DNA of 64,000 nt. It comes from Blasia pusilla (taxonomy: Eukaryota). The position numbers and the translations under genes were made by a program. Below the pieces are notes generated by a model. The model was given only the letters and a program-made list of their open reading frames with translations. It did not search any database and was not told where the DNA came from. Positions 11,398-58,847 of this stretch are shown in pieces. The stretch spans positions 13,950,001 through 14,014,000 of the forward strand of contig CM114271.1 of assembly GCA_050084515.1 (NCBI GenBank), read 5' to 3'. How positions within the stretch are numbered: position 1 is the first letter of the stretch; every line of letters begins with the position of its first letter.

Positions 11398-11402
11398 TTA
11401 TA

Positions 11403-20600: not shown

Positions 20601-23600
20601 GTTGATGCATTTACATTTTCTTGTTCAAAATTCTGAAGCTCAGTTGTTCTCTCAGCTTGGAACTTCTGTCGCTTAGTATTTCCAGGATCTTGGTTCTTAT
20701 TCCCGTCATGCACAACACGCTTTCTGTTCACCTCATTTCCTATCAAACGAGCATCTTGGAGCGCTTGCTTCTCAATTGAACTCATAGGATTGATTGGATC
20801 CTTATCAAAATCTACTGATGAATTCTGGAGTCGCCTTCTAGGGTCACGACTCTTGAAATTTCCCTTCCCTGTAAGTGAATATGCTACATTTTTCATAGAT
20901 TCAGGTTCTTCGGACTCCCGAGTAGGCGAGGGCAGCATAGTAAAGTCTGCAGATTTAGCCCTTGGAAATTTTGGTTCATTGAGAGGAGTTGGGGAATCAA
21001 GGCTTTGATTGCAAGTCACATTCTGATTTGAAGTGGCCAAAACGTTGGGAGATACCAATTTTCCAACCCAATGTGACTGCTGGAAACTGGATTGAGTAAT
21101 GTCTGAGACTGATGTGACTATCTTCATTTCCTTGGAAGGTGGTAGTGGGCCAACTGAAACGTCCTCATTTTCATCTGATGGAGTTGGACTAGGCAGTCGG
21201 TCAACGGAGTACAAGGAAGTGACCCCAACGTTCTTCTGATACGGTAATAAGGTTCCGATGTCATGCCTGGGCGGCCATGGTTTCCCTATGATAGACTCAT
21301 CCTTAACCACTTGTCCCTGCACTAAAGCTCCAGACACAGGAACAGAGCATGATATTCCAGCACCTGCCGGACTTAACTTCTCCCATTCCTCCTCCTGCAC
21401 ACTGTAGTTCTTAACAGGCTTCTTGTATCCTGGTGGAACATTTGGATTGTCCTGCTGTGAGGAACTTGCTGGAAGGCCGACATGTGCCCTCAACTCAACA
21501 GAGTTACCAGTAAACCCATCTTGAACAATTTTCACTGGCAACCGGTGGTCAGCTTCACTCCAGGGCTGATATCTTGCCATTGAGGAATTGAGCGTGGCTT
21601 CTGGATGGAGAGCAACCGCTGCTTGATCAGAATAGTGAACCTGAGATGATCTCTCTGAAAGCCAACCCCAACCATTAACTGGACCTGAAGATCCACCAGA
21701 TCGGCTGCTATGTGTACTACCAAAGAGAGAATTTGTACGGGAAGCAGCAGAGCTTTGGGCATAGGCAAGAGCCGCTGCAGCAATGGCAGCAGCTTCCTCT
21801 GCTTGTTTTGCATCGGCAAAGCCAAGAATTCGCCCACCAATGTTGCCATCAGAACTCTTCTTCTCCAAGGTATTCTGCTGTTTCGTTGTTGGAAAGTTAT
21901 GTTCCACAGTCTCTCGTTGCTTCACATCTTTTTCCTTACTCTTCTTGGATGCAAGAAACTGGTGCTCCCGTGGATACTGGACCTTCTCAGCTGCATCTCT
22001 AGCATAGCGTCCAGTAGTAGGCATTGTTTGCATCATTACCTCCAGCTGCACAGACAACAGTCCAACGAAAAGTTAATACCACATGAACAATTGGACAGCC
22101 CAAAATCCGGAAACATGTAGAGCACTGCGTATCGGCTTCTGTAAACTGAACTTATTGTTAGAAGGAACCTAGATCTCTTCTATGTTTCCCTCAAAGTTAA
22201 TAAAACCATCAAATCTTAGCCCACATTGCTTTGCCAGAAATCTAGCCGGCGCTTTTCATTTCTCACCTCACGAGTTTGCTTGGTCGTGAAAAGTTTCTGA
22301 CAATAACCATTAGCAAGCTCCAGCAACCTGCAGAAGACTACGTCAGCGCTGCCGCAATACACACTCGAATAAGTCGTTTGACCAAAAATGAAATGAGGAC
22401 AGAGAAAGTATATTTTAGCAGACCTAGGGAAAATGTTCTTGTCACGCTCTTGCTCTATTCCACTTGCTGTGTTGCGAACCTGCCACGGACCAGACATATC
22501 CATTAATACTAGCCACAGATGTCTCGGTCCTTCCTCTACCCGGTACAAGTATGCAAGTTACGATGCAGCTGTTTCGGGATCAAGTTCTTAATCCCTTACA
22601 GCATAGACAGCTCGAATGCCTGCGAATGCCTGCCTAGCAAGGAGGGAGATTTCGCGAGGAGATCCTTCCAGGCGTCCTTCCTGTTCAACAGATTTCCTTG
22701 GAGTGTGAAACTCATGCAAGAGTCTCAATGCTTTGTAAAGCCGGTCGCATACATCAATAAAGGACCTGCAAAGCATGGGGTGAAGTCAGCAATTCCAGTG
22801 ATCACCATTGGGCCCTGATAGCACATGTAAATAGCTTAGTGGCAGAAGCAAGGACACAGCGAAAATTCATCGAGTTAAAAAATGAACCATCGAAACGGAT
22901 TCTAATGCCTTCATCTCCTTCTACTTACTTTTGGGCATCCTTCACTGTCACATTCTTCACCAGACTAGTTGCCGAAGCTAGACGCCTCTTTCTTTCATAA
23001 TCCAGAGATTTAGATTGCCGGCTTCTACGTGAAGAGTAATCGTCTGACGGAGACCTGGAATTGGAGTAGGCTTTCAACACGGATCTGCTGTACAGGTTTC
23101 CTGCATCCTTGTCTTTTCCAGAGTAGTAACCTGAAGTCTCTGCATTGGACTTCGTACTCTGACGACTCAGATCTGGTGATTCCTTGGATGGGGAAGAGGC
23201 TCCGGCGGGCACTGAACCCAGTTCAATTTCCCCCTCTTCAAGTTCTCCTTCTTCACGATCCTCTGCGTCATTTTCTTCACTTGCCAAGTGAACTGCCGCA
23301 TCTGATGAGGTTTTGCCACTCTCGGTGAGTTCGTCAAGTCTCCCATTCGGGCTTTGAGACTCGGATCGTCTCCTCCGATCCTCAGCCTCATACTCTCCCA
23401 CATCTTCGCCCTCATTCGCTTCTCTTTCGACTCTCCCACCGAGTCTATCTTTCAACGAGCGCCTCTCTGAGACGCCCCAAGTTTCCTTTTCAAAACAGCG
23501 CAACCGCCCTCGCCCTGAGTCCGTGCCGCGGTTGTTGTCTATCGGTGACAGATCATCACGATCTTCAGAGGACCTCCCAGGCCTTCTGTAAAGCTCCATC

Positions 23601-24184
23601 TCGCGACTATAATCCCTGGCCACATTCTCTGCCGCCCAGCCTCCCGACCCTGGCGGTGCTCCGGGGTTTCTCTCACCTCTAGAACTTGTTGGGGTCGGGG
23701 AGTCGACGGGAGGAAAGCTCGGGCGACCCGAAACGGCCTGTGCCCAGGCAAAGTTGTACAGATTGGAACCATAGGCACCATTTGGAGGATTGAAAGAGGA
23801 CTTATCCTTCCTCCACGAAGGCTTGTCTTCCCCCCAGCCCTTCCTATCGTGACCATCGTCATCGAGTTTACCCTGTTCTCTTGAATCTCTTCCCTCATGT
23901 CTGAAAAAATCCGTCCGCTTTCTACTTTCCGATCTAGTAAGCTCACCTAATGCCATCAAATCATCAAGACTCACTCTTCTGTGCAACAGAGGCACATCCT
24001 TGTTCTCTTGTTCTTCCTGCTCCTGCTTCTCCTGCCCTGCTTCCTCGTCATCCTCCCCCTCCCCATCATCAACCCTAGACTCGGGCTCTTCAGACACGGA
24101 GGCAGGGGGCTCTTCGTCTGAAATTTCCCCTTCCTCATGCTCTTCCAAACACTGATCGTTGGGGCTAGAGACTGTTTCTGCCAT
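17669..24184 (-). CDS. CPL3: RNA polymerase II C-terminal domain phosphatase-like 3 (FCP1-type HAD phosphatase plus BRCT), 12 coding exons
   Basis: KLCLVLDLDHTLLNSAK (DxDxT), MWTKLRPGIW, LHVYTMGNK.YATEMAK.LDP, IIDDS..VWPH, BRCT region GCKVVFSR...THVVA..PGTDKVNWA, N-terminal EEGE motifs, YNFAWAQAV and RDPRR motifs. Approximate exons: 24184-22929, 22765-22600, 22479-22424, 22327-22267, 22045-20369, 20165-19413, 19265-19101, 19003-18744, 18619-18508, 18369-18112, 17933-17887, 17735-17669. Confidence 0.93.
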
Positions 24185-25482
24185 TACAATCAACTGTTGA
24201 CAATCCCTAAAAGATGGCCACGCGCAGAAGCGGATTCTTGCAACCCGAATGCCCGGCGTCAAAGAGAGACTAACCCCTGCTGAGATCGGGTCGATAGAAA
24301 CCTACACACTCCAAGGAGAGTGAGTATCTCCACATTTCCCATTGCACCTCTTTGGACGTAAGGCCACATAATTGAAGACCACACTTGTTCTCCCTCTACG
24401 CGACCCCCATCCACGCCATGTGATCCAAGTCAAATCGATCCTTACCCGATGTTTTACAAGCTGCCTGCGCGATGTGTCTTGTTTATATTCGTTATTACAG
24501 CCTTATGTTCATCTAGCCAGCTAACTCTTGTCTCCACATCCCTGTGTACAAGTTATCTTCGGCCGCTTCTTTATGAACGCACATTCGACCCATCCGCCTG
24601 CACGGAGTCTCGGTGCACGACCCTAAGGAGACAAAACCGAGGACACGGCACGTCTACTCGTAAGGAATCCTATCCGAGAGTGCGCGGATCAAAGGAGCGC
24701 CTCTACATCCTCCGCTCTTGCTCCGGAGCGGCTTCCTCAGGAGGGCGGCAGTGATAAAAATCCCACACGAGGGACCCATTCCAGTTCCACAGGCATCGAA
24801 TCGCGTCGGCACGCGGTTTCTAGTCGAGGGGATGGCGTGGGCTTGGCTAGGCTTTCGCTGATGCAATCACAAACCGTGGAAGGCAAGCGGAGCGATCGTT
24901 GTATCGCGCCCAAGGGTGCGTTCTGCCACACGGACAGAGGAGAGAGACTACTGGTAAGGCTCACTCGCAGAGAAGAAGAATGAGAAAACCAGAGCGCGAG
25001 AGGGAAGAAGGAACGGAGAGAGCAAAAGCAGTCGCCGGTCGAAGGGGAAGCGTGCGCGTGTGGCTCTTCCGGGGCGGACTGACGGAGAGAATGAAGGCGA
25101 GCATGTGCGACTGGACATGCAATTGGCTGCTTCTCTGTCATGCGCCTCCGACTCGTAAGCACCGGCATAGAGGTGGTGGTGGTGGTGGTGGCCCCTCACT
25201 CCCCGAACGTCACTCCCGCCTCCGGTTAAAAAATGAGTTCCCGGCATTTAATAGAGGGACTAATGTGGATTCAAGGGTTATTTAGGGTAATGCAGCCGGT
25301 TCTCAACTAACGCAGTAAGGCCCGAATCCTGGTTTGGTTTACCTCAACCCTCGCTCCTGGGTGGGAACCCAAGGCGTCTCGGATACCATAGACTCACTAA
25401 ACCCTCTACTAGCATCCCACTAGGCTCCGAGCGGGTGTGCTCCGTCCACACGCCCGCCAAGTAAATGCCGGGGACGCCCTCC

Positions 25483-25735
25483 GAAAGCCATAGATAGCCG
25501 CGGCCATGCGTTTAAGGCCGCGTAGACTAGGCCTTAGGTGCAGGCGGTTCGGCACGGGACTAGGGTCGGAAATACCGGCAGCGGACAGCGGATATCGACC
25601 TTCAAGGACGGATGGACGGTTGGACGGACGTATGGACGGACGGACGGACGGACGGACGGACGGAGCTTCGGATGGACGGACGGACGGACCCGAGACGGAA
25701 GGACGGATGGACGGACGTATGGACGGACGGACGGA
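25483..25735 (+). repeat. Left TIR plus subterminal (GGAC/GGAT)n array
   Basis: GAAAGCCATAGATAGCCGCGGCC...GCGGACAGCGG, followed by a ggac-rich tract at ~25606-25735. Confidence 0.93.
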
Positions 25736-25868
25736 ATAAATTCCGTCCCTGTAGTTTTCCGTTCCGTATCACACTCCGTCCGTTCGTAATTCCGTTCCGT
25801 ATCGCAGTCCGTCCCCTCATCCATACTCTCCCGCCATCCCGTTTTGAAAAAACAAATTCAGCGTCGTC

Positions 25869-26005
25869 GGTTTACCATGCGGATTAGCAAATGCTTCAGA
25901 ACCGCTCTTCGTGTTAGGGTGGATTCACCATGCGGATTAGCAAATGCATCAGTACCGCTGTTCGTGTTAGGGTGGGTTTACCATGTGGATTAGCAAATGC
26001 TTCAG
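25869..26005. repeat. ~53-bp tandem repeat, about 2.6 copies
   Basis: accatg(c/t)ggattagcaaatgc(t/a)tcag occurs three times. Confidence 0.88.
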
Positions 26006-26809
26006 AGGAAGATAGGATTAGCGAGGATCAGATAGGGAGGTTCGGGAAGGTTGGATGAGTGAGTATTGAGAATCAATTTTGGATTAAGAAGAGCCTTCGT
26101 CGATCAGGGATTGGATGTTCCGAAATGTTCGGGCATTGGATCTGAATAGCTGCGTGTTTGGATTAGCTAAACGTAGAAGAAAAAACCATAGTCTGACGAA
26201 TAAAAAGGCTCCAATGTGTTTGGCTCCAAGCTGAACATTCTACTTGACTTGAGTACGTTTTATAGTATTATTAGTGGCGATTAAGTATCATTTTCGGATT
26301 AAGAAGATTTCGGATTCCTAAACGTTCGGGCATTGGATTAGCTTCGTGTTTGGATTAGTTAAACGTAGAAAATAAAACCAGAGTTTCTTCGAGCTTTTGA
26401 CGGATAAAGAAGGCTCCCATCTGTTCGGTGCGCAGAGCGAATGAGCTGAACCTCAACCTGAGTACGGTTTATACTATGATTTGAAAGGTATGTATCTCTA
26501 CCCCTCAAATTTGTTTTTTGTAGTGGCAGCAGAAGCTGGTTTCTCGTTATGCCCTTTGTTTGATCAAAAGAAGTCTTCCCTTAAACCTGAGTTTATGTAT
26601 TTGAAAGCATGATGTACCTCACTGCTAGGATTTCACTGATATATGGATGATACTAAGTATCGCTAAGTAATCCCTATGCATGCTTCGTGTGTTTTTGGTA
26701 ATTAGGAGGAAATCTGCATGTCCGAACACAGACCTCATTGTGTTCTTCTTTTCTTCTTGTGATTGGCAGCTTCTCAAAGCCCTCGCAAATCTGTATCCAC
26801 TCTGTCACC

Positions 26810-29800
26810 ATGGTGAAATACACAAAATATTCCACTACATTACAATGTGATACTATCCAGACCCCACCGCCTGGTCCTTTTTTAAGAGAACACCTCATTT
26901 GGTATGGTGACCGAAAGGAGGCATGGATTCCTGCTGAAAGGGTACATGACTTCATCCGTGGTGAAGAATATAGACCGCATTATCAAACTACTTTCTGAAT
27001 CAGCAAGACTGATAAATCAGGACACAAGAGTCTTACCATTCGATATTGGTGCGCATATGGACCGCATGATTGTAGGGGTTCGGTTTGGACATCTTTGCCC
27101 AACAAGGTCTTTGACCCTAACATTCGTCGTATAGGGGGCAAGGGTAGCAGGCCAGAAAACCAGAGCACACGCCTTGGACTATCTCAAGGACGCGGATGCC
27201 AATTTCACTTCGCTGTAGTCTATCCATCAGATTGTGTTGGCTTCTGTATGATAAGGCATCTTCATTCAAACCATGTGGACAAGGAAGGTCGGATATGCCA
27301 TGGTGACTTGGATAAGACAGCAGATATTGCAAATGCAATTGTCGCCCCGAAACTAAGTTTGCACTGCAGGGATTTTGTAGAGCGCTTGTTACGAGTGAAT
27401 GTAAGCCCCAAGAATATCACGAAAGAGCATAGGAGGTGGATTCGCGTACACATCCGTGAAAACCCCAATCAAAAACATGCATGGGGTAGGGACGCCATGC
27501 TCAAGCATCAAGACATACTAAATATTAAGCATTCTATGCGAAGGCGAGAAGGGGGATATGACGGAACCGATGACGCTACTGCAATTCATCACTGGGTACA
27601 AGCACATCCTGAGAATGTAATTTACTACAGGGAGGCTATTTCCAAGTTGAACCAGTCCTTTTGCCTTGTACTTTCCACACCTTGGATGCTCCAGAATCTC
27701 TTAGAGCTAGGGAACGGCGGGGCCATCTCCATGGACGCAACCCATGGCACAAACACCTACGAGGTTAGTTGGCCTTGATCCTATCATTATTGTAGAATTG
27801 ATGGAGCCATGGAGCAGGGAACCGGAAATGCTCCTACTTAAGGATTGTTTGAAATGCTGGATGTTTTGAACTTAGTGTAAAGTGTATTCAAAGAATACAT
27901 GATTCAAATGTGTGATTTCCACTACTTTCAATGGACATTATAGGTGAGTCAATGCGTTTATCTTCATCGGTAACCATTCCCTTTTGTGCGATTTTTCTTA
28001 CTTACACCCTGGTGCCTGTTTTCATTTGTCTTCTATTGTGAACATTATGTTATGTGTGTTCACAGTATCAATTATTCACATTGCTGGGTTTTGATAAGTT
28101 CCAGAATGGCCTGCCATTGGTATGGGCAATCCTACAACGACATCAACACGAAGATCTGGTAGAGACCTTGTCCCAAATCAAGGACTGGGCACAGAGGAAT
28201 ATACACTCGAGCATGCAAGATACAGAGGCAAATGAATGGAAGCCTTCATGCTTCATTGTGGATGACTCGAAAGAGGAACAATCTGCTATCCGAAATGTAT
28301 CTCCAGGTGTCCCTATTGACCTCTGCCTATGGCATGTTCGCAAGAACTGGTTAAAGAATCTGCATCAACGAGTGCGTTGTCCAATTACGAAAGCGGACAT
28401 GAACAGAGACTTGGGTGGTGTAATGTACTCACGTGATGAAGGTATATCATCAACCACCCTGATAGTACACTTACATGCTTTTCTCTTTCCCTGGATGGTT
28501 TCCTCCACATACCGCTCAGTGACTAATAAATGATTTGCATATGCCATTGCAGATCCCATCGACGCCTCCTATCGGTTCATGCGCAAGTGGGTTGGATCAG
28601 AACGACACTTTGTGAAGTACTATGGAAGCTACTGGCATCCAAAAATTTTGAACTGGGCCAAGGGATACCGCTAGCACGCAAGGTCCAACCAAGATACGAA
28701 CGCTGCAATCGAAAGGTGGCACCACACTCTAAAAATGCACCTAGCATCCAGCATGCCCACCAAGCCAACAAGAAAACTGATATGGCTTGTGCAAATGCTC
28801 ACTGGTGAAATAGAAGATTTCTTCTGGTACCTAGGCTTCTTGAAACGAGAAGGCATGGTGAGAAACAAGGCCATACAAAAAGTTATGCTCATGGCAATTA
28901 AAAGGGCAAATGACATACCGGATAATCATGTCACATTTGATTTGGTAGATGGGAGGAAATGTGCGAAGGTGAAAAGTATTTCAAAGCGGATGTTTGGCAT
29001 GATGTGGTCGACTACGATACAAGAGATCGCTTGTACATGTCCTCGTACAACGAAGGGTTCACTTGTAAACATCAGGTCTGTCTTCATACCCGTCTTTGAC
29101 GTGATTCAGGGTCTTTACATCAGATTTCAGCAAGTTGAATTCCATCTGTTTTAACACACTCCGTCTGCAGGTAAAATGTCTTCTCCTCTGTGGCCACACA
29201 AAAGTTCAGTTGTTGTCTTGCTTAGGAACTCGCTTTGGAAGCAGAGTGGGTGGGTTTGAAAATTTGGTGCAAGAGCCATACAAGGATGAATTACATGATG
29301 AAGATCAGGAACACGAAGATGGAGATATTGGCCATGAAGGACAAGACCATGTGTTTGTTGAACCTACAGGAAGAGATCCGCCACCAAAAACCACCACCAA
29401 GGATGTTCGAGACATCATGGAGAAATGCCTAAACGCTACCCTTGGGGTTCCATTCTCAGATATGCTCCTAGAACACTTGTTTCAACTAGTGCAGAAGGAT
29501 TTAGATTCAGTTTTGAACCTCAAGGCCAGGGTAGAGACTAACACTCACGTTGAAGGTAATGCTAATGACATTGCCACACACTTTCCTGAGCCGTTTGTGG
29601 GGAATGAATCACAGAACCGTAGCCTGCGTAGGCGCCTAATTTGGCTAGACCTCTTGCATTTAAAACAAAGGTCCCGTGGTCCTGTTAGAACTCAGCCGAG
29701 TTTCGAAGAGCACCAAGTGGAATCCTTCCACAGAGTGAGGAAAACTAAGTTTTTGAACATGGAGGCAGAAATGGAAGGGTCGGCATGTATTAGTTTGGAC

Positions 29801-29848
29801 CTGGTGGCTCTATTGAGCCAAGTTGATGAGACCCGTCCCATGGCTTAA
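26810..29848 (+). pseudogene. MULE DDE transposase with SWIM zinc finger, spliced and disrupted
   Basis: Exons ~26810-27763, 28066-28441, 28553-29075, 29171-29848. Motifs RGCQFHF, SMDATHGTN (D), FIVDD (D), LCLWHV (CxxH), DTNAAIERWH (E), CTC...CKHQ (SWIM). Stops at 26996 (TGA) and 28672 (TAG); frameshifts near 28985-29045. Confidence 0.9.
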
Positions 29849-31365
29849 ACGCAGATTCCCAATGGCCTCTCGGTAAACAAAGACACCTCATAGTACATAC
29901 AGGTCTGCCAATGTCTCAAAGAGGACAAAAGTGGACATTATGCTTGATAGCCTTGCTGATTCATCTATTCCATTAGATTGTGAATTACACCCTGGAGCTA
30001 TAGGAGAAACCAATGACGCCCTAATTATCTTGGACTCTCAAGAAGAAACTCTTGTGTGAAAGCCAATTCAATCTCCTTAAATACTGTGAAGTAAAGCGTT
30101 GTAACGTTTTGTAACACGAAGTAGGAGGTGTTACACGGGAACACATGATATACAGTGTTCTGCATGTTTTTAAATCGAACACCTGAAAACATGTGTTCAT
30201 CCCTTATTATGTTGTGCATTCTTGAATAAAACCTTTTGAATCAAGTTTGGTTTCTACCGCGATGGCAGCTCTGACAAGATCCCATTCGGATCCCGTGGGC
30301 ATTTTTGAATCTCATTTATGCACTTTGCTTCTCAAGCCGGTCGGGCACGCATACCTCGCGCGCGCGCACCATTCCACATCGGAGGCTTAACCACGTACAG
30401 GGGGGCGCAGCTATACTGCGTCGTGTTCCACGCCGTAGAGGCAAAACACCGCCACTTTTGTCATAAAGAGATTCCTCTAAACTAGTTGTAACTAAAGAAG
30501 ATAGGCTTGACTAGAAAAAAAACGCTTTGGACACGCTCCCAACCCTACCCTCGAGCCATGTCCCTCTTCGTAAAGTTTTAGCGGCGTCGACCCTACCACA
30601 GCTAACTTAGTTGACCCTAAATTCGTCGCTAAAATAATCATGTGAAACGAATAGCCGTTAAATAATGTTGAAGTGCAACAACGACTTGTCTATAATACGC
30701 GTATGCGATGATATGTAGTGAAACAAAGCATATGCAAGATGAACATCGCAGCTCCAATGTTCATCTTGTTGAACACCTCACAAACAATGTTCCAAGTCCA
30801 TGGATATGTACTAGGCCATGTTTAGAACCTCAACAAGTATAGAAGACCATCAGTTACAAACCAAACATACAGATTTAGATTGTGGACAGGAGTGGCTTCG
30901 GTTGGTTGAATGCGATAAGTGTGTGAAAATGTCGGGACAAAAACAGATTGTCGACAGGAGTTGCCTGAAAGGGTTGAATGCGATAAGCCATAGAAAATGT
31001 CACCCATACATTGGGAACAACACATATCACAGTATGCACTTCGACTTTTCATAAAAAAGGCAATTGCAGAGTACAAGTGTGATTTCTTAAGTTACATCTA
31101 ACCCTGTGGCAACCCGGGAGGAAAGGGATTGCAACACAGAAAAAGAGTGTCGGCGTAAAACAGATTGTCGCATGTGGAGTTGCTGAAAGGGTTGAATGCG
31201 ATAAGCCATAGAAAATGTCACCCATACACCCCGCATCTGCACAGAACAAATCAACAACCGAACCTTTAAGACATGCCAACATAAATTGCATAAATACAAT
31301 GACACCGTCATTGCAAGAGACTGAAATAAGATTGTCTAACCTGTTTTAGCTTCGTGTTGTAGTGC

Positions 31366-34097
31366 TCAAGGAAGGTCTGCAAAACTCACAAACTCTAGCA
31401 GCGGCCATAGATAAGGAACAAAATTGTCCGACTGATAGCCTCTGTTGGGGTGCTCGATGCAAAACCTGAAGCAGCCGCCGTCCATCAATAAATTCAAAGC
31501 ATTCCATGGCACATCAGTAGGCCCGCGGTTCATCATCAAAGATAGTAAACATTTTATACAGAGTCTGCACAATTCCCAACAGCCGGCTATCTATCACACA
31601 ATGTCCATACACATGTAAATTTACACTCTTGAGTAGGTTCAAAATATCACTATAGTCTATCAAAAGTGTGAAAGAAGTTTTAGAGGCATAGATAGCCGCG
31701 GTTCATGTCATTACATGATGAGGGTGCAACTCTAATGTTGGCCCGCAGGAGCAATGCTCGATGACAAAGTTTCCATATCTAAAGCATCCAATGCCGGAGT
31801 CGAAAAAAGGGGCAGCGGAGTAGAATGAAAGTCTCCGCCATCCACATCAAGACATCTTTGGTCTTCACTTGGCACCGCTACCTCCCGCTGCACCGCTACC
31901 TCCTGTTGTATGTGTCCAGCTCCACCCACCTAATTACCAGCCGAAGTGTCTAAGCCCTAAATTAGCATTGGATAGAAACGAATTTGAAGATCATCAATCT
32001 ACTTAACATTAATTTTTGAAAGGGATGGAACACAACCTGGTCACTTCCGCTAAGCACGCGTTCATTGTCCAAGTTCACAGCAACCGCTACAGGGTGTCCA
32101 TCTCCCGTCGGCGCCTGCTGAAAAGCCACATGAATGTGTGAGGCAAGTACAACTCTTCCAGAAAAAATAAATATCTCAAAGGGTTTAGTATAGGAATGTT
32201 CTGTACCTGCAATCCCGTCTCTAAGTCCGTCTTCTTCTTCATTTCGGCCAGCATGATCCTTCTACTCCTTTTCAAGGACTCTTTAGTTTCTCCCGTAGGA
32301 TACTTGGATCTCACAAAGAGGCTCCCTGCACCACCACTTGGTGCAGGTTAGGCGACTTACGGTATCCACGGGATGCTTGGCCTGACCGATACTACTCTTT
32401 GGATGAAGGCGAGGAGATCTCCTGGTATCACGCGTGACCCTGGAAGATCTCTCCATGGTGGGCCTACCGGATCTAGAGGTGGGTCTTAGATTCCGTGGGT
32501 GCACAATGTTAGAGTCAATTGGCTATTCTGAAAATACAGGCTCTACGTCAGGCCGCCCCACCCTCTCCTCCATCCTCTGTGTTCCTGCAGAATCTGGAGA
32601 TCTATGACCATCATCTAGCGAGTCTGAGTCACTGGAGTCCACAATCTCCATATCCACACCGCCCTGCACACATGTTCACCAAATGACCAATCATCTGAAA
32701 TGCACAAGAGTAGAAAGCATGCATAGAATGTACAAACTTAGCCTAATTTCAATGGAGAGGGATAATTCAAGGACTAGAATGAAAGGACAAGATTTGTACC
32801 CTGGACACAGTATCAGCATGGCTGCAGCCAAGTCCATCCACATACATACGTGTCACTTTCTCTCTCATTGCTGCTTATATAAACGGTTTTTTGGCCTTTT
32901 TCCAAACCCGGTAATTATACTTGAACCGAGGGACAAAGTATTGCTCGCTGATGAACCAGGCATGCCGGTGCGCTCTGCGCATCCCATCTAATACTGCAAG
33001 AGACTGCTCCACTTGTTGTTTTCTAGTCTCTAAACCTGCATGCCATCGAAAAGGTTCCTGCCTATCCATCATCCACACAGCAGATAAGTGGTGGAACGCA
33101 ACTCGACATCTCCAATATGTCGCACGATGTACCCTATCAGCAGGTACGTGGGAAGGGAGAAGCTTATGACCGGCCTCTATCCATCCCCTCACTATGAGCG
33201 TAGGGCGCACCAAAGCACTCTCCAATTCCTCCCTGGCCTTCTCAAACTCCTCCACCTTGGCTAAGCATTCCCATGAGGTTTGCTGGAATTCTACAATACG
33301 ATGAGCTTCAAATGCAATCAGCAGATCAGTAAGTGCAGGCATGGGGACATAAGGCCCGGCAGCCCTTGTGGCATGGTCTTTGGCTTTGTTGAGGATAGCA
33401 TTCTTCTTCTGCCGCTTCCGGTTAACCCAACGTTGCAAGACTGTGCCTCTAAGTCTGACATTGGCAGCAGAAGGATGTGTGTGAGTCCCTGCATAGAAGC
33501 GTGTGTGTGAGTCCCTGCATGGAAATCTGCAGTATGACAGAGATTCTGACCCTTAAGCAAAACCAGGCAATTACATGAGCAAAACCAGGCAAGTACATGA
33601 GCAAAACCAGGCAAGTACATTCGCAAAACCAGGGAATTACATGAGCAAAACCAGGGAAGTACATGAGCAAAACCAGGCAAGTACATGAGCAAAACCAGGG
33701 AATTACATGAGCTAAACCAGGGATTCAATCACATAGTGGACCCACTCTTACCCTCATCTTCCTCGTCATCTTCTATGCCTTGAAAATCAGCATCTGACTT
33801 CTTCTTCCCTGTGATACGAGGTGTTCCAGGCACTGGCCTAAGCCAGTGCGAAGCAAGGTGGGAGTTGAAAGCTTCCGGCATGCGGAAAAATTCAATGCAC
33901 TTGGAGCACAAGCAACGTCTTTCGCTTGTGCTCCTCGTCAGAGCAATAGTGGACCCACTCCATTGGATCCCTCCACAGTGATGTTTGGTAAGCCTGCTTT
34001 TGAGAGGGGGGTGGGCTTTTGCCCATAAACGCAGCAAACATGTTTAGAGGCTCAAGGTAGGAAAGCTCTTTCTCCACGTCTCCCTTGTAAAATGGGC
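31366..34097 (-). pseudogene. MULE accessory gene A: spliced, unknown function, with a C2H2 zinc finger; disrupted
   Basis: A series of minus-strand coding-like segments with GT/AG edges (34097-33751, ~33447-32850, 32663-32207, 31950-31732, 31572-31366). CSKCIEFFRMPEAFNSHLASH at 33908-33846. A frameshift precedes the finger and there are in-frame stops. Confidence 0.55.
33556..33722. repeat. 22-bp tandem repeat (agcaaaaccagg(c/g)aa(t/g)tacatg), ~7.5 copies, in a putative intron of gene A
   Basis: Read directly from the sequence. Confidence 0.95.
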
Positions 34098-34407
34098 CCT
34101 ATGTAACAACATTATCAACCATACAAGTAAGCATAAAATAGTTACCTTGGTCATTGAAAGACAACAGGCACATGATGGGATGTGATTTCTCAGGTGGAAT
34201 TTTATTCACCCGGATGAGAGCATACGCATATCAGGTGTAGGCTTATGTGATAACTAGTAAATATGAAACTAAATAAAATGTGAAGAGCTAGACGCAGGGC
34301 AATGAAAATTCGCCATTCGGAATACTAGTATTCGTAGGACGTGCCCATGACCGCCCAAACAACCCATCTAAAAATTAGAAAGAGAAGCTTATGACCGCCA
34401 AGCTCAA

Positions 34408-34563
34408 GTCGTCTACAAGGTAGACGACTTGCCCATCACCGCCCAAACCCGTCGTCTAAAAGATAGACGACTGGCTTGCCCATCACCGCTCAAGCCCGTC
34501 GTCTAAAAGATAGACGACTGGCTTGCCCATCACCGCCCAAGCCCGTCGTCTAAAAGATAGACG
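34408..34563. repeat. 47-bp tandem repeat, each unit with an 8-bp-stem hairpin GTCGTCTA-N5-TAGACGAC
   Basis: Hairpins start at 34408, 34451, 34498 and 34545; the last has a shortened right arm. Confidence 0.93.
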
Positions 34564-34699
34564 TGGGGCTTGTCGTGATTCTCAGCTTACATGAATACTA
34601 TCCCTATATTGAAGTGGTATATGTAGGTACTTCGGTATATGGTTTACGACAAGAACTAGGCCTCAAAAAGTAAACACAAACCCTAAATCTCCTAAACAT

Positions 34700-36162
34700 T
34701 CCCTAGGATTTCAAGATGCAGAAGATTGTCCTCCACCTGCAAGAAGATGAATCAAGCACACCTCATTAGTCACTTGGTTGAATTCGGTCTACGAAGGAAC
34801 ACAACTTGTATGACGAAAGAGGATGAACACACATGCACTATGTGTTAAGAGCTTACCCCGAGCTAAGTTCATAATGGCCAATGAGTTGATAGCTTCGGAT
34901 AAATCCACATGTTGGTCCTTTTCCAAGTGTAGTTGATCATCAATGTCAGTCTGGTCGATAAGGTAAATCCTTTTAGGAGTGACCCCAATCACCCAATCGG
35001 CTATCTGTTGTGATGCCTCCATTAGATTCTTGATCTCTTGAATCTTGTGGGCTGTCACCTTACCTCCCTTGTCACCAACTACAACAAACTCAGTGTTTCC
35101 TCTTTTCTGGAAATAGGAGTGAAACCAAACGTGATTTCCAACCAACCGTGCTTTCGGACTGAAAGCCACGTGGTACCCAGCATCCCTAGCTGCCTGTTCT
35201 ATGCAATGGTATGTATCTAGAGGGAACCCTAGGATGATCCAATCATCCAAATAACTACAGGATAGTATATGTGTGCGCTTTGCAAATAATATGTGCCAGA
35301 TAGAAATTAGGGCATGAGTTTGTATGAATGATGGGACTCACCCATGTTTCAACCGACCCTTGATTGCCAGACAAGAAACGTGTAACATTTTCTGGTTTAC
35401 TAACTAGCATGTTCAAAGTCTGCATCCCATTTGCATCTAAGAACTGGACATTATTGGACATGATGCGAAAAGTAGTACACTACAAGCCCTAAAACTGAGG
35501 CAAATTCACATTCAAGACCTAGGTCGACGGTAGTGGCAGATTTGACAGCAGCAAATTTGACAGCAGCAAGGAATTTGAACGCTTATGTGCTCCCCTGCAA
35601 GAATTGCAAATCTTTGGTAAGGAACTTGATCTGTGTGAGCCATATTTCTACATCGGAAGACATATTCATACCTACATCAAATATTTCGCTTTCGCAGTGG
35701 GTTGGATCTCGAGTGGAGATATCCTCTAAATATGCCTTGTATTTGTGCAAAGAGAGATAGAAGGTCAGCCCACTGGTAAACATATCATGAGACGGAGTCT
35801 GAATGACTATTTACCTTGTGTCTGTGCTCAAAGAAGTTCCACACGATGTACAATAGGCGACACGATGGTTCTGTATGGACGCTTGGAAGAGAACAAAGAC
35901 AGAAAACGTTCAGGTTTTCTTCTCACTAAAATAATTCATGACAGAGCAGCACAACCAAGATTTGCATCATGCGCCCTACATTACTTGGGCAACTGAAAGT
36001 ATTCATTCAAACACGCTTAAGTTGATATATCCCTCACAACCGCATGTTCAGTAACCAGTTCAAACAAAGTTTGTATACTGCAAATAGATTCAAATATATT
36101 TCCATTGCCTGAAAAGTTGCCACACGTTGTACAATAGGCGACACGATGGAGCTGTATGAACA
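34700..36162 (-). CDS. MULE accessory gene B: spliced, unknown protein; exon structure uncertain
   Basis: An open, protein-like exon ~35254-34858 (LDDWIILGFP...MNLAR|gtaag), a short last exon from 34736 (VEDNLLHLEILGNV*), and upstream coding-like segments including two HRVAYCTxCG copies. Confidence 0.45.
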
Positions 36163-37810
36163 CCTGGAAAAATACAGAAACACCAACCTGGTAATTGTCG
36201 AACAAAGTCAGAAAGAGGAGAGTAGAGAAGAGAACGGGCTCCTTAATTTAGTTCAACCTTTTCACTGAAACTCGGTCTTCGTAGACCGCTGCACATTCCC
36301 TCTATCATGCTCGAGATTTATGACCGTCATCGTCGTGACGACAACGGCTGAGGTGATGTGCAAAGCGAAGTCGTGAAGTACAGAGAAATTCAAAGAAACG
36401 AAGTTTCTCCAGTCCTGCTTCTGTTTACGGTTTCTAAGGAACTTTAGGTCCGCATTAATGGACCTAAAGTTCAGATGTCTGACCTAAAGTATCACTACTT
36501 ATCACTTTGGATCTCCTTATGCTCACTCTACCACAACAGATCGGCAGCCTAGTAAGTTGAGGAATTGGTCAGTTTGTGCTATGATATATCCGAAGTAAAT
36601 GGCTACAATTGAGGTAATTCATGCCATGTTTATCATGCATAGATCAATACTTTAGAGCAGAACTAGAATGCAGCGTGCGTGCATTGGGATGAACTTGTTA
36701 ATGACAGACCTAATCATCATGACTGCAGCCTGTGCATGCCTTTCCCTGACGTCAGGGACAAGCAACGAGAATTAGAAATGAAGCAAATTGAAGTAAAGCT
36801 TCTTAGATGCGTTGCTATACACGATCCGACTTCTGATTGTTGCTCGGAAAGGTTTTCCCTGAAGATGCCAGGGACCAGCCAAGTAGAAGTTCGTTGTTTC
36901 AGTGTTCATCTTGTTGAACACCTCACAAACAGTGTTCCAAGTCCATGGATATGTACTAGGCCATGTTCGGAAAAAAGAAACATCAACATCGAACAAGTGC
37001 ACCCCTAAGGTAAAGTGTTGTAACATATCATGACCAATCATGAATTTGGAGTCTTTTGCTTCATTGGGTTGACTCTTTGGATAGGAGTGGGGAGGAAAGA
37101 GTGAAAGTACTCATTTTTCCCAAAGAATAAATGGCAACCCAACGATAAGTAGGTTTTCTAGACAAGATCAAGAAAAAGAACAATCATCTGATGCAAATGG
37201 AACCTCATGTAAGCTAGAGAGACTTGTCCGTTTCAGACTGATTGTTCTTACAATGAAAACAGTGAAATGCATAGTATTGCTGGTATGTTAGGTATTGTAC
37301 CGAACAATTTTGGGTTTGTAAACGCACATCAAAATCTCACCCATGCTAAGATAGAGCGACACGACGACGACCACCGTCCTATACTCATGTTCATCGGGGA
37401 GAAGACGAAGGTACAAAGTGGAGAAAATTTGACTTTCAAAAGACTATCCAGGCAGCAAAAAACGAGGTCACCTACGGTATTTTGAACGGAAAGTGGACAC
37501 CGATAATGAAATCTTGCCGATAATTACGGTAAAATCACATCGCTCCAAATGTATATCAGTCGCTTATCAAAAAAGGAAGCAGTTAATCCACTTTGTGTAA
37601 TCTACCATCTTCCTACTCTAATGTACTCAGATAACAAGCCGCTTGGAGGCGGGGATATTGTCTCCAACTTACACTCCAAATTATCCCGTAGGAACCGTTC
37701 AATGCTCAAAAGTACATTTCCTTATACGCATGGCCGCGGCTGTCTATGGCTTTCGTCTTTGTCATCGAACAATTTTGGGTCATCTTTGAAGTTCATCCTG
37801 TGTATAACAG

Positions 37811-38021
37811 TAAGCTTGAGAGGTAGAAGGAGGATGAAGATGAAGACAACAACAATGGTATCACAAAGAAATACAAACTTAGCATCAAGAAGAGAGGACT
37901 TCGTTCTGAAGCTCGAGCAGCTACTACAACGGATTTGGACATGCAATTGCTCAGTCCCCTTCAGCAGCAGCGTATGAAGTATAAGCAAAGAAAACGGACC
38001 CTTCAGGGTCGGGAAGAGACT
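37811..38021 (+). pseudogene. Captured host exon resembling the C-terminal region of the CWC27/CYP57 spliceosomal cyclophilin
   Basis: Bounded by cag| and |gtaagt. Translates as KLER*KEDEDEDNNNGITKKYKLSIKKRGLRSEARAATTTDLDMQLLSPLQQQRMKYKQRKRTLQGREET, matching the remembered plant CYP57 pattern KLSLKKKG.GSEA...D.DLQL......Q..K.KKRRLQG.E. Confidence 0.65.
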
Positions 38022-38711
38022 GTAAGTCATGCATGGCTTTGAGTTTCAGAAAGGAGTTGACATTGGAGATATGTCGATGTATTTCCTTCTCGAAGATGAA
38101 AGGATGCGGGTGCAAGCTTGTCCAGAAAACTCTGAAAACTCGACTCTGCAAACTCGACGAATATGCCCACAAAACTCTGCAAATTCGATCTCACAGTGGC
38201 TTCATTTCTCTTCGATTGAATGACGACTGAGCGGCTGATCAAAGAAAAGAGGAGAAGAAAAGAGAATAGAAGAGAAACACCAACCTCATAGGCGTAAAGA
38301 AAGCGGATTTGTGGCGGCGAAAGAAAGCTCTCAAGGCGGATATGCGGATTTGGGCAGGCGAATCAAGCTCTCCGAAGTGATAGCGCACACAGCAAAGAAG
38401 TGGCAGGCCGAATTGAAGCTCTCCGAAGTGATAGCGCACACAGCGAAGACCAAAAAGCCTCAGCAAACCGAAAAGACGCACCGGACCGAAATAACGCCGC
38501 AGACTGGCAGGCAGAAACGAAGCTCTCAAGGCGGATTTGCACATTTGCGGCAGGCCGGGACGAATCCCTCAAGTCGATCGTTGGGACCGAAAAGACGCAG
38601 CAGACCAAAAAAACGCAGCAGACCGAAAACACACAGCAGACCGAAAAACGCAGCAGATTGGGTTTCGGGTTTCGGAGTTCGGAGGTGAGGGTTCCGTCCG
38701 CTCCACCCCGT

Positions 38712-38969
38712 CGTCCGTCCGTCCATCCGTGAGCTCATCCGTCCATCCGTCCGTCCATCTGTCCAGCCGTCCGTCCGTCCATCCGTCCTTCCGTCCTTCC
38801 GTCCTTCTGTCCGTCCGTCCACCCGTCCGTCCTCCGTCGGACTCCGTCCGCTCAACCAAACCGCTGTCCGCTGCCGGTATTACCGACCCTAATCCCCTGC
38901 CGAACCGCCTGCGCCTAAGGCCTAATCTACGCGGCCTTAAACGCATGGCCGCGGCTATCTATGGCTTTC
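38712..38969 (-). repeat. Right subterminal (GTCC)n array plus right TIR
   Basis: Mirror image of the left end. Confidence 0.93.
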
Positions 38970-39393
38970 GACGCCCTCCTCCTCTCCGCTAACAGATGCA
39001 TGCCTTCAAGACTCCGTTCTCCAACTCTTCCATCCATCGCTCCGTCCCTGTTTTCCAGTTCAGCCCCCGCTCTCGGCGCTACGCCGCGGCACTTCTTGGC
39101 TGTCAGGACCTCCCGTCCACTCCACCACCATCCATCGGATCCAGGACTCACCCGCGATTGAGCCGGCCCCATTCTTCGGTCGAATCCATTATTGGGTTTC
39201 ATTAGTAGGGCCGCTCAAAGCTCGGCTCGGATGGAACATGAAAACCAGTATGCCGTTTTGAAAGAAGAAAAGATGCACTTCCATAAAAATGAGTGAGGGA
39301 AAACCCATCGGAAGTACAAAAGAGGGGGACTCAAAGAGTTAAAACCTGAAGGCCACAACAAGACCAGAAAAGGAAAAAGGGGGCATTCCCCCC

Positions 39394-42300
39394 CTAACGA
39401 CGAAACTCACCAACAGCAGAGACAATATCAGTAACAACAAGAGAGCTATGACTATTACTAAGTGGGCCTCTAGCGCCGGCGTCTCCCACAGCCTGAGCTC
39501 GCCGCAAAAGCCCATTAGCCTGGGCGCGCTGCAACGCTATGGAGACCCGCTACCTACAATAGAGAATCGCAGTAGCTAAGGACAACCCATTTCTCGAGTG
39601 GAGATGATGGGCGCAGTCCATAAGGAACGAGTCGAACCTCTCCCCCATAGCCCCATACACCTCTATGGCCAGGGGGATGAAGATGTGTCCCTCGTGAAGT
39701 CGACTGTAGATATGTGTCTTCTTCACCGCCGCCGCTCCTTATAGCATTCGCCCTTGGGCCACCACTTGGGATCGCACTGCCTCCCGCGTAGGATTTGTAA
39801 CTACCACGTCCGCCACCACCACCTCAGCCTCTCGTGTCATGTAAAGATCGGCTCGAATAAGGGAATCCTGCATGGAGTACTGCCTCTCTCTCTGCACATG
39901 GAAGCCACTCTCCCGAGCAATACTGAACATGATATCCCGCATTGCATCATGAGTGGCTATCCTCTCACCCCCAACTGGACAGCGTGCCAAATGCACACCA
40001 AGTGGATCCAGGCTCCGACGACACTCGCAGTGTGTCGAACCAACCACCGATGGTTGGGGGAGGCCCAAGCGGAACCGCATCGTTGTGGTATAGGTAAGTG
40101 GTGCGATATGGAAAGCCGGGAGAAGGGGGCGCGCCCCTACCCATGAGCCTGCCCCCTTTCCGGAGCAAGAGCGAATACGGGCCCTAACCTCCATGGGGAT
40201 ATTCCCGTCGGACATAGTGCCTCTAAAACTGCCTCAAAGTGGGCTTCCATCAAGGAAGATTGGAGCCAGATTGACCGGAGGTAACTAAGGAGGAGAAAGT
40301 GGGGGAGAACGGCTCGGCCTCAACTCAAGGGAATCTCTACAAGCTGTGAGTGAAGACTAAAGTGGGAAAGAGCCATCCTCAACCTGGGAGACGTAGTGTA
40401 GAAGGACCGGTCTATCTCTAACCAAAAATCGGGAGCAAAGGAGGGGTGCCACTGTGGCCCAACTCCCTAAAAAAGCGGAGGGTGCCACTAACTCGGTCGA
40501 GAGAAGACCTACTCCACCAAAAGAAATCGGCCAAGAGGTTTGTCTACAAGCTAACTCCCCCATGGGGCACTCTAAGGAGCCGGGTCCTAGAAGATCCCCA
40601 AACACCTGCATGAGCTTCCTATCAAAGGATCTATATAGGGAAGAAAGGTGACTAGATGTCCAGACCATTCTAGTGAGGTAACCACGTCTACGAGCAAAAC
40701 AAGAAGAGAGAATGCCAAAGGCGACTTGAGGGTCACCAATCCTCGTAAGATCATCAACGTGGAGAAGATCCTTGGTAAGAGCCGCCGCCACGAAACTCGA
40801 TACAAAGTCTTGGCTCCCGAGCGGGACTCCCAAGACTCAAAGCCCTTCGACACGTCGCAAGAAGCCGTCCGATAAATGTAGATCATCACGTAGGCCTGAT
40901 GGAGACTAAGCCTTGCACTTTCCCACCTTCACCGCCAGGCCGACACGTGCCAACTGTGCTGAAAAGTGCTCGAATGCAGGGACAACAAGATCTCCAGGAC
41001 CAACAATATGAGTATCATCTGCCAACGAAGGGAAAATGCAACCTACGAAAGCCTCCACCGTAGAAAGAACCGCTCGGTAATGAGCCACAAAAAACAACGC
41101 GCCACCCAGAGGGTCACCCTAATGAAACCCGGTAGCAGACTCCAAGACCGTGACCTCCTCCTCGAATCGACCATGGTGGAAATAGAGGGCCGAAGGGGCC
41201 CCATAGAAAGCTTGCACAAAGGGAATGAGGCTCGCCATGGGGCCACCCGTGTCCCTCAACTCTGTGAATATAGTAGCCCGAGATACTGAGTTGAAGGCGT
41301 TCTCCACGTCCACTTGGAGAACCACCCACTCTGGATGTACATCTAGACAAGCCCTCAAACCTAAGGCAACCATCTCACATCCGGCTGGCGTGGCAACTCC
41401 AAACTGATGCCGACTCGGATGTGATTTCGAAAGCCTCACGGAATTGCAAAGCGAGAGTACGACTCACCAACCGCAAGAGCACCTCACCTATGGCAGTCGG
41501 ACGGATACCACCACCCTCCTTCGACAACGCCAAAAGTCGCCCTGCCCCTAATACTTGGGCCACTGGTGTTGGCACTCTCCCCTGAGCTAGGTGAGAGGCA
41601 ACCTGAAGCAACTCGGAGAAGCCGCTAGCGGAGTCCTCGGAAAGAAAGCAATCACGAAGGTGTTCGTACATCATACCAAAAAATCCTCCAGCCGCAATCC
41701 TCGGAGAACGTCCGAGTGCCCGTGCAAAGAGGGACGGGTCAAGGCATATAGCCGTGTCAGGATGGAAGTCACGTGCAAAAGCTAGAATGTCAACCGCTGG
41801 AATGTCAACCACTAGACGAGGATGTAGCCTCCGGAGGGCATCAATGGTAACATCTGAAGAAGGAGTCATGTCCATCGGGCGAAGAGCACGTGCAGCTCGC
41901 GAGTACTCACAGGCTCCCCCCAGTGTCCTACATCGTCGCAACCTGGCTGCTACAAGATTGTCCGCCGGGAAACCAGGTGAACTGCTACCTCTGGCAAATG
42001 CCACAAACTCACTCTGCAAAGACTCCCAATCACCTCCTCGAAAGCGTCTCAGACATGCCACAACCTCTCTATGATCGGCCTTCCCTCCCCGAGTGTAACG
42101 AAGACACCATCGTGGAAGGAGAAGTAGTAGGTACCAAGAGAGCTCATCCATAGGATCAAGAGCGATCCTAGCTAGGGGAAGGAGGAATGCGTGGCGGAGG
42201 TCATCCTGAATAGCATGGGGGATCCTATGGAACAGCCTTGGGCACGGAAAACGGGTCTCGAAGAGACCTATAATGCTGCCCTGGTGGGACCTCAACCACT

Positions 42301-42520
42301 CCCATGCCTCAGGAGGGGGCGATGATGCGGGAAGCACCGGAGAGCATCCATGGTCGACAGGAGGGACCACCCATCCAAATCTATCAAAGTCATGATGTTT
42401 TGCCGCTAAGTGGTTCCGAATTCCTGAACGAGTGAAGAATTCGGGACAACATGGGCATTTAGTATCCCGACTAGACGACCCACGGGTCCCCACACGGGGA
42501 GCCGATGCGGGTCGAGGCAT
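39394..42520 (-). mobile_element. CRE-like non-LTR retrotransposon ORF (C2H2 finger, RT, zinc knuckle, restriction-like endonuclease), disrupted; UTRs probably extend to ~39250 and ~42970
   Basis: N-terminal CPCC...HLAAKH. RT motifs LLALSKEGGGIRPTAIGEVLLRL, QFGV, DVENAFNSVSR, G..*GDPLG, SLADD, LGVPLGS. C-terminal CEC...HLARC..GG.RIATHD, RADL, DVVVTNP, FIPLAIEVYG, RVSIALQR. No APE endonuclease. Several stops and frameshifts. Confidence 0.85.
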
Positions 42521-43739
42521 GGATGCAACTCACCAAGAAGAGGACATGGCCCCCTCCAATAAAATCGTGTGACAATCCCCCACCAATAACAGTCCGATCA
42601 TCCCCATTCGAACGAGCGGTCCTGGCAAACAACTCTCTTCCCGTCCACGGTAATGCTCCCTCTAACATAAACTCTCACCTAGCGACATCACCTAGGACTT
42701 CTAGTCCCAACCCCCTCCCAAAAATGAACTCATGAATACCTAGAGTTGCTAAGAGTGTGAAAAGATCATGGGCCAATCGAGATAAAATAGATGAGAAGAA
42801 AGGTGTATCTACGGGAGGGGTAAAAAATACAAATGTGAATCGAACCAAAATGAGAAGCAAATACGACAAACAAGGAAGGACTTGGGAAAGGAGGGGAAGG
42901 GTGGGTGAATAGAGGACGTTACCTTGGGAAATTTCTCCAAATGACAATAAGCAAAGCCATAATACTCACATTTGGAACCCTAATATGAACCGAATTCTAA
43001 AAATATGAATAAAAATAAAAATTCTTCACGCCATGCATCAAGGTCCAGATCAAAATGAAGCCCTCGTCACACTCTCCGTTTTGATATGTAGCACGTCCCC
43101 TCTCTTCCCCGACGCCCACCGTTCTCCCTCCCGCCGTCCCCGTCCATGCCTCCCGCCGTCCCCGCCCAAACTACGTCCGCAGCTTCAGTACCGTTTTGAG
43201 AGGGGTGGGAGAGAAAGTAATTAATGGAGGACGCGTGGATAACCTAGAAGGACAGGAAAAAAGGGCGAATGTTTATGGGGGTATAATAAAGAAAACTAGT
43301 GTGCAGCCCGAAATAGCTTGGGTGTGTGAAGTGCGAATTGTGTCTTGATGAGAAGTAGGGGAGCTCAATGGTATGGACGACGGAAAAGAGTATTCCAGCC
43401 TTAGTTTGGAGGTTTTGAGAACACTAATATAGTCAAGAGTAACAGGGCGAGAGGAAGGCGTGGAATAACATGGCAAGGAATAACAATTATTCTATTCGGT
43501 GTCAATGAGAGTACTTGGAAAAATTCATATTCATCCGGCCGTTAAAAAATTAATATCCGAGGGTTGAAAACCGTGCAGAATAACTTGCATTCTATAGGCT
43601 CTGTACTTGAGTCGAGTATTGTAGGGGTTGTGACTAGTGATACAGTCAAGAGTAACACGGCGAGAGGAAGACGTGGAATAACATGGCGAGGAATAACAAT
43701 TATTCTATTCTGTGTCAATCTAATTGGCGACCACATATT

Positions 43740-58688: not shown

Positions 58689-58847
58689 TGTTTATTAAAT
58701 TGACTTATAATCATTGAGAGGCACATTTGACAATAGAATAAGTCATTTTCTAATCTTTCTTCCATATATATTTTCTACATCACTTTGTTCCAATTTATAT
58801 ATTGTCACACATACCTATATATGTTGAGTAAACACACATAAATAAGA

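Follow-up and report, generated by a model that had tools for sequence, protein, structure and literature searches.

Does the large transposon in the middle of this stretch of the Blasia pusilla genome carry accessory genes of its own, in addition to a transposase? The stretch analysed, here called the window, comprises 64,000 nucleotides (assembly GCA_050084515.1, contig CM114271.1, positions 13,950,001 to 14,014,000), and all coordinates given below refer to it. An initial annotation, made from the letters alone, had described at 25483-38969 a giant multi-gene Mutator-like element (MULE) with a plus-strand transposase, opposite-strand accessory genes and repeat arrays, and had proposed it as a candidate for an undescribed accessory or anti-silencing system. 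The element of 13,487 bp at these positions is probably a non-autonomous, defective member of a multi-gene MULE family that is lineage-specific and has opposite-strand orphan accessory genes, a reading to which a probability of about 0.6 is assigned.

The ends of the element are sharply defined. Inverted arms of 110 nt each, located at 25482-25591 and 38861-38970, are 95% complementary and are separated by 13269 nt. The terminal inverted repeats (TIRs) of the element accordingly occupy 25483-25591 on the plus strand and, by pairing with the left arm, 38861-38969 on the minus strand; similarity between the two ends reaches inward to 25733, with 83% over 264 nt. The target-site duplication (TSD) GACGCCCTCC, read directly at 25473-25482 and at 38970-38979, is identical in 10/10 bp and abuts both ends of the element. 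In the 64-kb window, where 0.00 matches would be expected, a 28-nt probe taken from the TIR tip has three: the two element ends and, with 1 mismatch in 28, an internal fragment of 36 nt at 37720-37755, which the initial annotation lacks. Apart from TIR and array matches, no sequence common to the element and the rest of the window was found. The exact boundaries of the initial annotation, with long TIRs and a 10-bp TSD, are thereby confirmed. A TSD range of 8-11 bp is given for MULEs in PMC6446971. The element combines long TIRs, a TSD within this range, a transposase with a MULE domain and multiple copies at different sites, and is a Mutator-like cut-and-paste transposon; TIRs, TSD and MULE domain agree in this with the identity first proposed.

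Inside the TIRs lie mirrored GGAC arrays, as had been annotated. Tandem Repeats Finder (TRF) reported a left subterminal array of 31.8 copies on the plus strand (25606-25735) and a right subterminal array on the minus strand, reading GTCC on the plus strand (38708-38838). The motif GGACGGAC matches 22 times in the window, with 0.8 expected from shuffled sequences, and all matches fall within 25622-25814 and 38713-38832: 13 on the plus strand at the left, 8 on the minus strand at the right and 1 on the minus strand at 25807. Subterminal transposase-binding repeats exist in other cut-and-paste elements, and the mirrored GGAC arrays are best read as putative repeats of this type.

The transposase gene occupies 26810-29848 on the plus strand, with approximate exons at 26810-27763, 28064-28441, 28553-c.29090 and c.29165-29848, the stop codon ending the gene at 29848. 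It was delimited by Pfam, by tblastn, by an intron seen in RNA and by reading of the frames. The open reading frame (ORF) at 28042-28533 matches the Pfam family MULE, PF10551, with an expect value (E) of 1.7e-10 and 41.6 bits against a cut-off of 27.6. The N-terminal exon is 39-46% identical to five proteins of a liverwort, Riccia sorocarpa, which are hypothetical and annotated with PF10551 and PF21056; no database relatives of this exon beyond these five were found, which fits the earlier suggestion of a non-seed plant. Matches of the five proteins in tblastn span 26825-29530 and run through 26825-27760 in one frame, through 28066-28441 and 28553-29067 in a second frame, and through 29165-29530 in the first frame again. 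The Pfam match and this collinearity with the Riccia proteins bear out the annotated plus-strand transposase. A word-index protein search limited to longer proteins gave no relatives of the MULE-domain ORF, and a metagenome scan with the transposase exon gave 38 pattern matches, of which 0 were confirmed.

This gene is broken. In-frame stops are present at 26996-26998 and at 28672-28674, both within gap-free conserved blocks of the alignment with the Riccia MULE proteins, the second directly before the stretch ..SNQ.T..A.ERWH.TLK. The SWIM finger, recognised by eye and with no profile hit, is divided between two frames near 29055, with CTCPRTTKG in one and FTCKH in the other, which makes a frameshift at this point probable. 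The tblastn alignments show D, D and E retained at the aligned positions. As judged from its reading frames, the transposase of this copy is a pseudogene, unable to supply the enzyme; because of the stops, the enzyme must be supplied in trans by an intact paralog. Two side observations concern the same region. Two extra letters at 29027-29028 occur in 10/12 and 10/10 whole-genome shotgun (WGS) reads, and the frame at this point aligns to Riccia on both sides in the present copy. RNA reads also show joints between opposite strands at 28611/29089, 28613/29087 and 29063/29487; their sides measure just 25-27 nt, and they could reflect an inversion in an expressed paralog or an alignment artefact.

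Transcription was assessed from two stranded RNA-seq runs, X15 and X16, which gave the same picture. Over 26755-30060 nearly all RNA depth is first_mate_on-, corresponding to plus-strand RNA over the transposase. Over 31714-35570 and 37224-37774 nearly all depth is first_mate_on+, corresponding to minus-strand RNA. Intron orientation follows the same division: the transposase intron 28442-28552, of the GT..AG type, is covered mainly by first_mate_on- reads (7 vs 2 and 6 vs 1), and the CT..AC joints 32113/32206 and 32117/32207 mainly by first_mate_on+ reads (7 vs 1, 12 vs 0, 11 vs 4 and 12 vs 2). The latter represent minus-strand introns at 32114-32205 and 32118-32206, with the sequences ...TTGCAG/GTACAG and ...TTTTCAG/CAGGCG. 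From the opposite orientations of reads and introns it follows that the transposase and the minus-strand block are transcribed convergently and that the minus-strand RNA is spliced. The opposite-strand spliced genes claimed from the letters alone are thus real as transcribed units. The initial annotation had put their coding-like sequence at about 5 kb; strand and introns stood, and the length was roughly right, since 31714-35570 comprises about 3.9 kb, to which 37224-37774 is to be added.

By eye, the block consists of at least three units, all on the minus strand. Unit A (34792-35461) begins with an ATG at 35461, has a GTGAGT donor after 35342 and contains a 182-amino acid (aa) ORF at 35337-34792; its first_mate_on+ RNA depth is 6-10. 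A likely donor at 34856 within this ORF and a polypyrimidine/AG acceptor near 34737 were recognised by eye. The middle part contains first a 104-aa ORF (33732-34043), covered by RNA reads, with an acidic tail and the pattern C-x2-C-x12-H-x3-H, C2H2-like by eye, and then a 225-aa ORF (32878-33552). The third unit (31763-32347) is the most strongly expressed, with a first_mate_on+ RNA depth of 16-17, exons at 32347-32207, 32117-32037 and c.31911-31763, and an intron at 32206-32118. The longest ORFs in 30000-37800 have 225, 182 and 136 aa on the minus strand and at most 127 aa on the plus strand. The minus-strand ORFs exceed chance length: in a set of 1000 first-order Markov random sequences, an ORF of at least 225 aa arose in 3, and a pair of at least 182 aa each in 1.

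No relatives of these ORFs were found. An exhaustive HMMER search of 1.84 billion representative proteins gave 0 matches for the 225-aa ORF, the Riccia proteins included, and the language-model Atlas gave no usable match for it. For the 182-aa ORF, no relatives were found in a word-index search limited to longer proteins, and phmmer against the chains of the PDB at E<=10 gave 0 matches. The 104-aa C2H2-like ORF has no Pfam zinc-finger match; the 20 minus-strand ORFs scanned have no Pfam family at E<=0.1, and the three main ones show nothing beyond sub-threshold noise in Pfam at E<=10. AlphaFold2 run without an alignment gave minus-strand ORF models with mean pLDDT (predicted local distance difference test) values of 48.3 and 40.4, too low for use. 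With the predicted fold, Foldseek found nothing in the PDB at E<=0.001, and the best Z of the VIA wide fold search was 5.9, under the typical chance level of 7-8. No Rfam family was found in the whole window. A kinship of the 182-aa ORF to glutamine synthetase (Gln-synt_C) was rejected: its Atlas score of 0.88 is below the lead level of 0.9, and sequence searches gave no support. A match of the internal genes to ordinary host genes, which would speak against accessory genes, was not seen in any of these protein searches.

The number of copies was estimated from run X12, which comprises about 2 Gb of raw WGS reads under the same species label, aligned to 24000-40500. Depth in the left flank is 0.86 and 1.28. 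Interior bins of the element have 4.3-28.5, the core of the transposase being highest (21-28.5); values of 6.6-7.1 were obtained for the left subterminal bins (25653-26754) and of 6.4-16.1 for 31163-36672, which contains the minus-strand block. Relative to the single-copy left flank, this puts the family at about 4-27x and the block, in common with the subterminal regions, at about 6-16x. Depth in the terminal bins is low (1.9-2.3), in part since the read-alignment tool skipped arrays. At the right tip (38970), seven WGS reads continue into sequence that differs from this locus, and their mutual agreement is just 0.61, which indicates several insertion sites. A metagenome scan with the TIR pattern gave 0 matches. 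Judged from depth, the family has roughly 7 copies of this overall make-up, plus others having the transposase core. As block depth equals subterminal depth, the internal genes belong to the family at large and not to this copy alone, which supports their reading as accessory genes.

The RNA appears to come from elsewhere in the family. Reads at least 99% alike to this copy number 76/878 in X15 and 135/1222 in X16, nearly all others being 95-99% alike; the corresponding figures for the DNA reads of X12 are 185/2253 and 2068/2253. Letters fixed in RNA at 28168, 28185, 28220, 28287 and 28294 occur in 0/26-28 DNA reads, and those at 31777 and 31804 in 0/7-8 DNA reads. A further private variant of the expressed paralog is +G at 27550. 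The low read identity, together with RNA-fixed letters that are rare in DNA, indicates that the RNA stems from one or a few paralogs unlike this and most other copies.

Several observations weigh against a family with functional accessory genes. The linkage of the block to the TIRs in other copies is seen from depth alone. The RNA and DNA runs are from different samples, and the rare expressed paralog could be a strain difference; the RNA over the block could also be that of a parent locus that has diverged and belongs to no element. The first exon of unit A and the 182-aa ORF are out of frame across the obvious GTGAGT..TAG intron. The frame upstream of the zinc-finger frame differs from it, and a codon-usage log-odds test is not in favour of the zinc-finger frame. 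For most minus-strand exons the chosen frame scored highest in that test, a result confounded by the fact that open frames are stop-free by construction. In a language-model recognition test, the score of the 225-aa ORF (1555) is that of a shuffled protein. Finally, substitutions were counted in 40 of 497 variant rows, picked by read support: the 20 rows in minus-strand ORFs comprise 8 synonymous and 12 non-synonymous variants, similar to the 20 rows in transposase ORFs (9 synonymous and 11 non-synonymous), and this split hints at mild constraint at best. The imperfect joining of frames in the block fits a decayed member of the family. On balance, the proposal of an accessory system stands in part: the genes are family-borne, transcribed and spliced, and the transposase of this copy is broken.

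A mechanism can be outlined on this basis. This copy was inserted with a 10-bp duplication. Movement would be of the cut-and-paste type, by a DDE/MULE transposase recognising the 110-nt TIRs and probably also the mirrored GGAC arrays. In addition to the transposase, the family carries, convergent with it, a 4-kb block that comprises two to three spliced orphan genes and has about the copy number of the subterminal regions; a rare paralog is the source of the RNA of both block and transposase. Most likely these orphans are accessory genes borne by the element, which the family acquired on a single occasion, and their role may be analogous to that of mudrB or of vanB/vanC, aiding or regulating transposition, possibly with DNA binding via the C2H2-like exon.

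The interior of the element bears traces of rearrangement. A direct repeat of 68 nt, with copies at 30755-30822 and 36900-36967 on the plus strand that are 97% identical, brackets the minus-strand block. The internal TIR-tip fragment (37720-37755) is in right-end orientation, on the minus strand, as part of a 94% complementary pair. Adjoining it is a minus-strand transcribed segment (37224-37722; depth 3.5 in X15 and 10.5 in X16), and RNA reads turn loose at 37722 (19 in X15 and 46 in X16), which is the inner edge of the TIR fragment. A plus-strand intron at 37010-37810, with the exon end at 37009 and the next exon start at 37811, is indicated by the joint 37007->37809 (GT..AG when cut at +2), which is carried, mostly in first_mate_on- orientation, by 12 (X15) and 47 (X16) reads, with a side of only 20-22 nt. 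Direct repeat, TIR fragment, loose reads and the 37009/37811 transcript suggest past template switching or capture, and they are the only candidates for the host exon mentioned in the initial annotation.

These traces are what would be expected if the block and 37224-38325 were cargo in the manner of Pack-MULEs, that is, fragments of host genes captured during gap repair and functionless for the element, with their transcription being read-out or coming from the parent genes. Capture of host fragments is common in MULEs according to PMC6446971. The bracketing repeat, the TIR fragment lying exactly at the loose-read point, the broken frames of this copy and RNA indels missing from the DNA reads (+TCTAA at 37616, in 5/6 and 19/22 RNA reads vs 0/8 DNA reads) all speak for such an origin. 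A conserved host gene would, however, be expected to match, and neither the 225-aa nor the 182-aa ORF has relatives; the depth of the block equals that of the subterminal region; and the transposase gene has been retained, unlike in classical Pack-MULEs. Captured cargo is for these reasons considered unlikely.

The TIR fragment and the direct repeat flanking the block could also mean that the element is a composite of two, in which the right 1.2 kb (37756-38969) or a 6.1-kb block came from a second transposon or from an aberrant transposition, resulting in a one-off chimera. Against this, the depth of about 6-7x over both 35571-38325 and 25653-26754 shows the whole arrangement to be repeated, and the right end has a full TIR and a mirrored array. 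Within 29800-37800 no inverted pair longer than 24 nt was found, which shows that the block does not represent a TIR element nested in the larger one; termini of its own would have told against the initial annotation. A composite origin is regarded as improbable.

The remaining explanations turn on the tandem arrays. TRF gave 16 rows within the element, representing 11 array loci, well in line with the at least five arrays first noticed. Besides the GGAC arrays, these include, on the plus strand, a 53-nt array of 2.5 copies upstream of the transposase (25874-26006) with AGCAAA in every unit, a 22-nt array of 7.5 copies (33556-33723), a 47/94-nt array (34338-34563), a 15-nt array directly upstream of unit A (35536-35569) and, at 38353-38657 near the right end, a 51-nt array of 1.9 copies (38353-38449) and an 18/36-nt array of 4 copies (38585-38657). 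The site of the 22-nt array is occupied by about 8-10 different letters in the RNA and in other copies seen in DNA reads (joints 33582->33721 and 33582->33723), so that arrays are gained and lost between copies. The word AGCAAA is present, in one orientation, in the consensus units of 4/9 arrays, a level reached by 4/2000 unit shuffles and by 24/5000 and 15/5000 draws of real segments (p ~0.002-0.005). In the element as a whole it has 16 matches on the plus and 3 on the minus strand; 9/16 plus-strand matches lie within two arrays, and the 15-nt and 51-nt arrays have one each. As a common array word AGCAAA is a weak lead.

It could be that the orphan genes, one of them C2H2-like, form a regulatory module that arose independently in a bryophyte-lineage MULE and recognise AGCAAA or a longer form of it, amplified in rapidly evolving arrays, such that a master copy stays active and the others are silent. 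This is a long shot; if it were true, a counterpart of VANC in function would exist beyond the seed plants. Least probable is a VANC-like anti-silencing module, independently evolved, in which a protein of the block binds the array motif and keeps the element unmethylated: the common orientation of AGCAAA, the placing of arrays (ahead of the transposase and of unit A, within a presumed intron and close to the right end), the C2H2-like pattern of the 104-aa ORF and the turnover of the 22-nt array favour it, such turnover being known from VANDAL21 (PMC5735166) and no argument against a VANC-like role, but the common word has just 6 nt and no conserved context, more than half of its plus-strand matches fall in two arrays, the minus-strand ORFs scanned gave no Pfam match, and the TIRs are long.

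VANDALs are MULEs without long TIRs. The element described here differs from VANDAL21 (Hiun) of Arabidopsis, with its genes vanA, vanB and vanC, in its long TIRs and mirrored GGAC arrays and in having a weak 6-nt word in place of the dense 9-nt motif of VANDAL21. Shared with VANDAL21 are the multi-gene make-up and the presence of lineage-specific extra genes, and also, according to PMC5735166, arrays in introns and upstream regions that are gained or lost between copies. The 20 minus-strand ORFs gave no Pfam match, and hence none to a family of VANC or MURB type, provided that Pfam includes one, a direct comparison with a VANC sequence not being part of that scan.

MuDR of maize has a size of about 5 kb. 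The present element, of 13.5 kb, is unlike it in having several opposite-strand units with internal promoters, not TIR-borne ones, and in its transposase, which is nearest to liverwort proteins with the ZSWIM1/3-type RNaseH-like domain PF21056. Like MuDR, as portrayed in PMC6446971 and PMC12973397, it combines a MULE DDE transposase with a second, convergent transcription unit on the opposite strand, and its TIRs are long and its TSD is within 8-11 bp. For a relative of mudrB, the ORFs tested gave no Pfam or database match, direct comparison with a MURB sequence lying outside those searches. In layout, the element thus resembles MuDR in its convergence and VANDAL21 in carrying several genes and labile arrays. 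The Riccia sorocarpa MULE/SWIM proteins share with it, beyond the N-terminal exon, a collinear DDE core and C-terminal region; no Riccia protein matches the 225-aa ORF. With Pack-MULEs it has in common non-transposase sequence and traces of rearrangement in a MULE, and it differs from them in the retention of a broken transposase gene and in cargo without a detectable host relative.

To call this an undescribed system was an overstatement. Extra ORFs are a known feature of MULEs (PMC6446971), and PMC12973397, in which 1007 genomes of the green lineage were surveyed, describes the accessory proteins as diverse, with known domains in 52.3%. Non-vascular plants make up 5.7% of the sampled species and 0.9% of the active clusters in that survey (PMC12973397). 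Active TIR transposons are apparently scarce in non-vascular plants, which makes a transcribed multi-copy MULE family with orphan genes useful material. Such a family could be used to learn how often Mutator elements gain helper genes and what these genes do. The value lies in the family and in the expressed paralog, which is to be expected in the assembly, the copy in the window being a dead member.

The neighbours of the element are a transcribed minus-strand host gene, whose end is about 400 bp away, and a LINE-like (long interspersed nuclear element-like) repeat at a distance of about 300 bp. The region of the gene (19299-25195, minus strand) contains transcribed ORFs of 288, 620 and 458 aa without a Pfam match; its transcription is seen from RNA reads over 24000-25100 and from a contig of 6952 nt in run X7, which has its end at 25066. 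On the other side, 39270-42530 is a high-copy, strongly expressed minus-strand repeat with a WGS depth of 41-142 vs about 1 in the single-copy flank. Its ORFs resemble a non-LTR (non-long terminal repeat) retroelement, the match to RVT_1 being weak and below threshold (E 0.01). Many reads end or turn loose at 39270-39298, which places the edge of this repeat at a distance of about 300 bp to the MULE.

Copies of an AT-rich repeat, probably another dispersed element, are located at 11200-12400, 43740-44820 and 58490-58700. The sets at 11200-12400 and 43740-44820 are mutually inverted and 85-90% complementary, lie about 32 kb apart and flank the central region of the window. Two ordinary host genes were recognised farther out: exons of an alanyl-tRNA synthetase on the minus strand at 60510-63405 (tRNA-synt_2c, E 1.9e-77; DHHA1, E 2.2e-16), and a PHD-finger ORF on the plus strand at 1454-2263 (E 2.4e-11).

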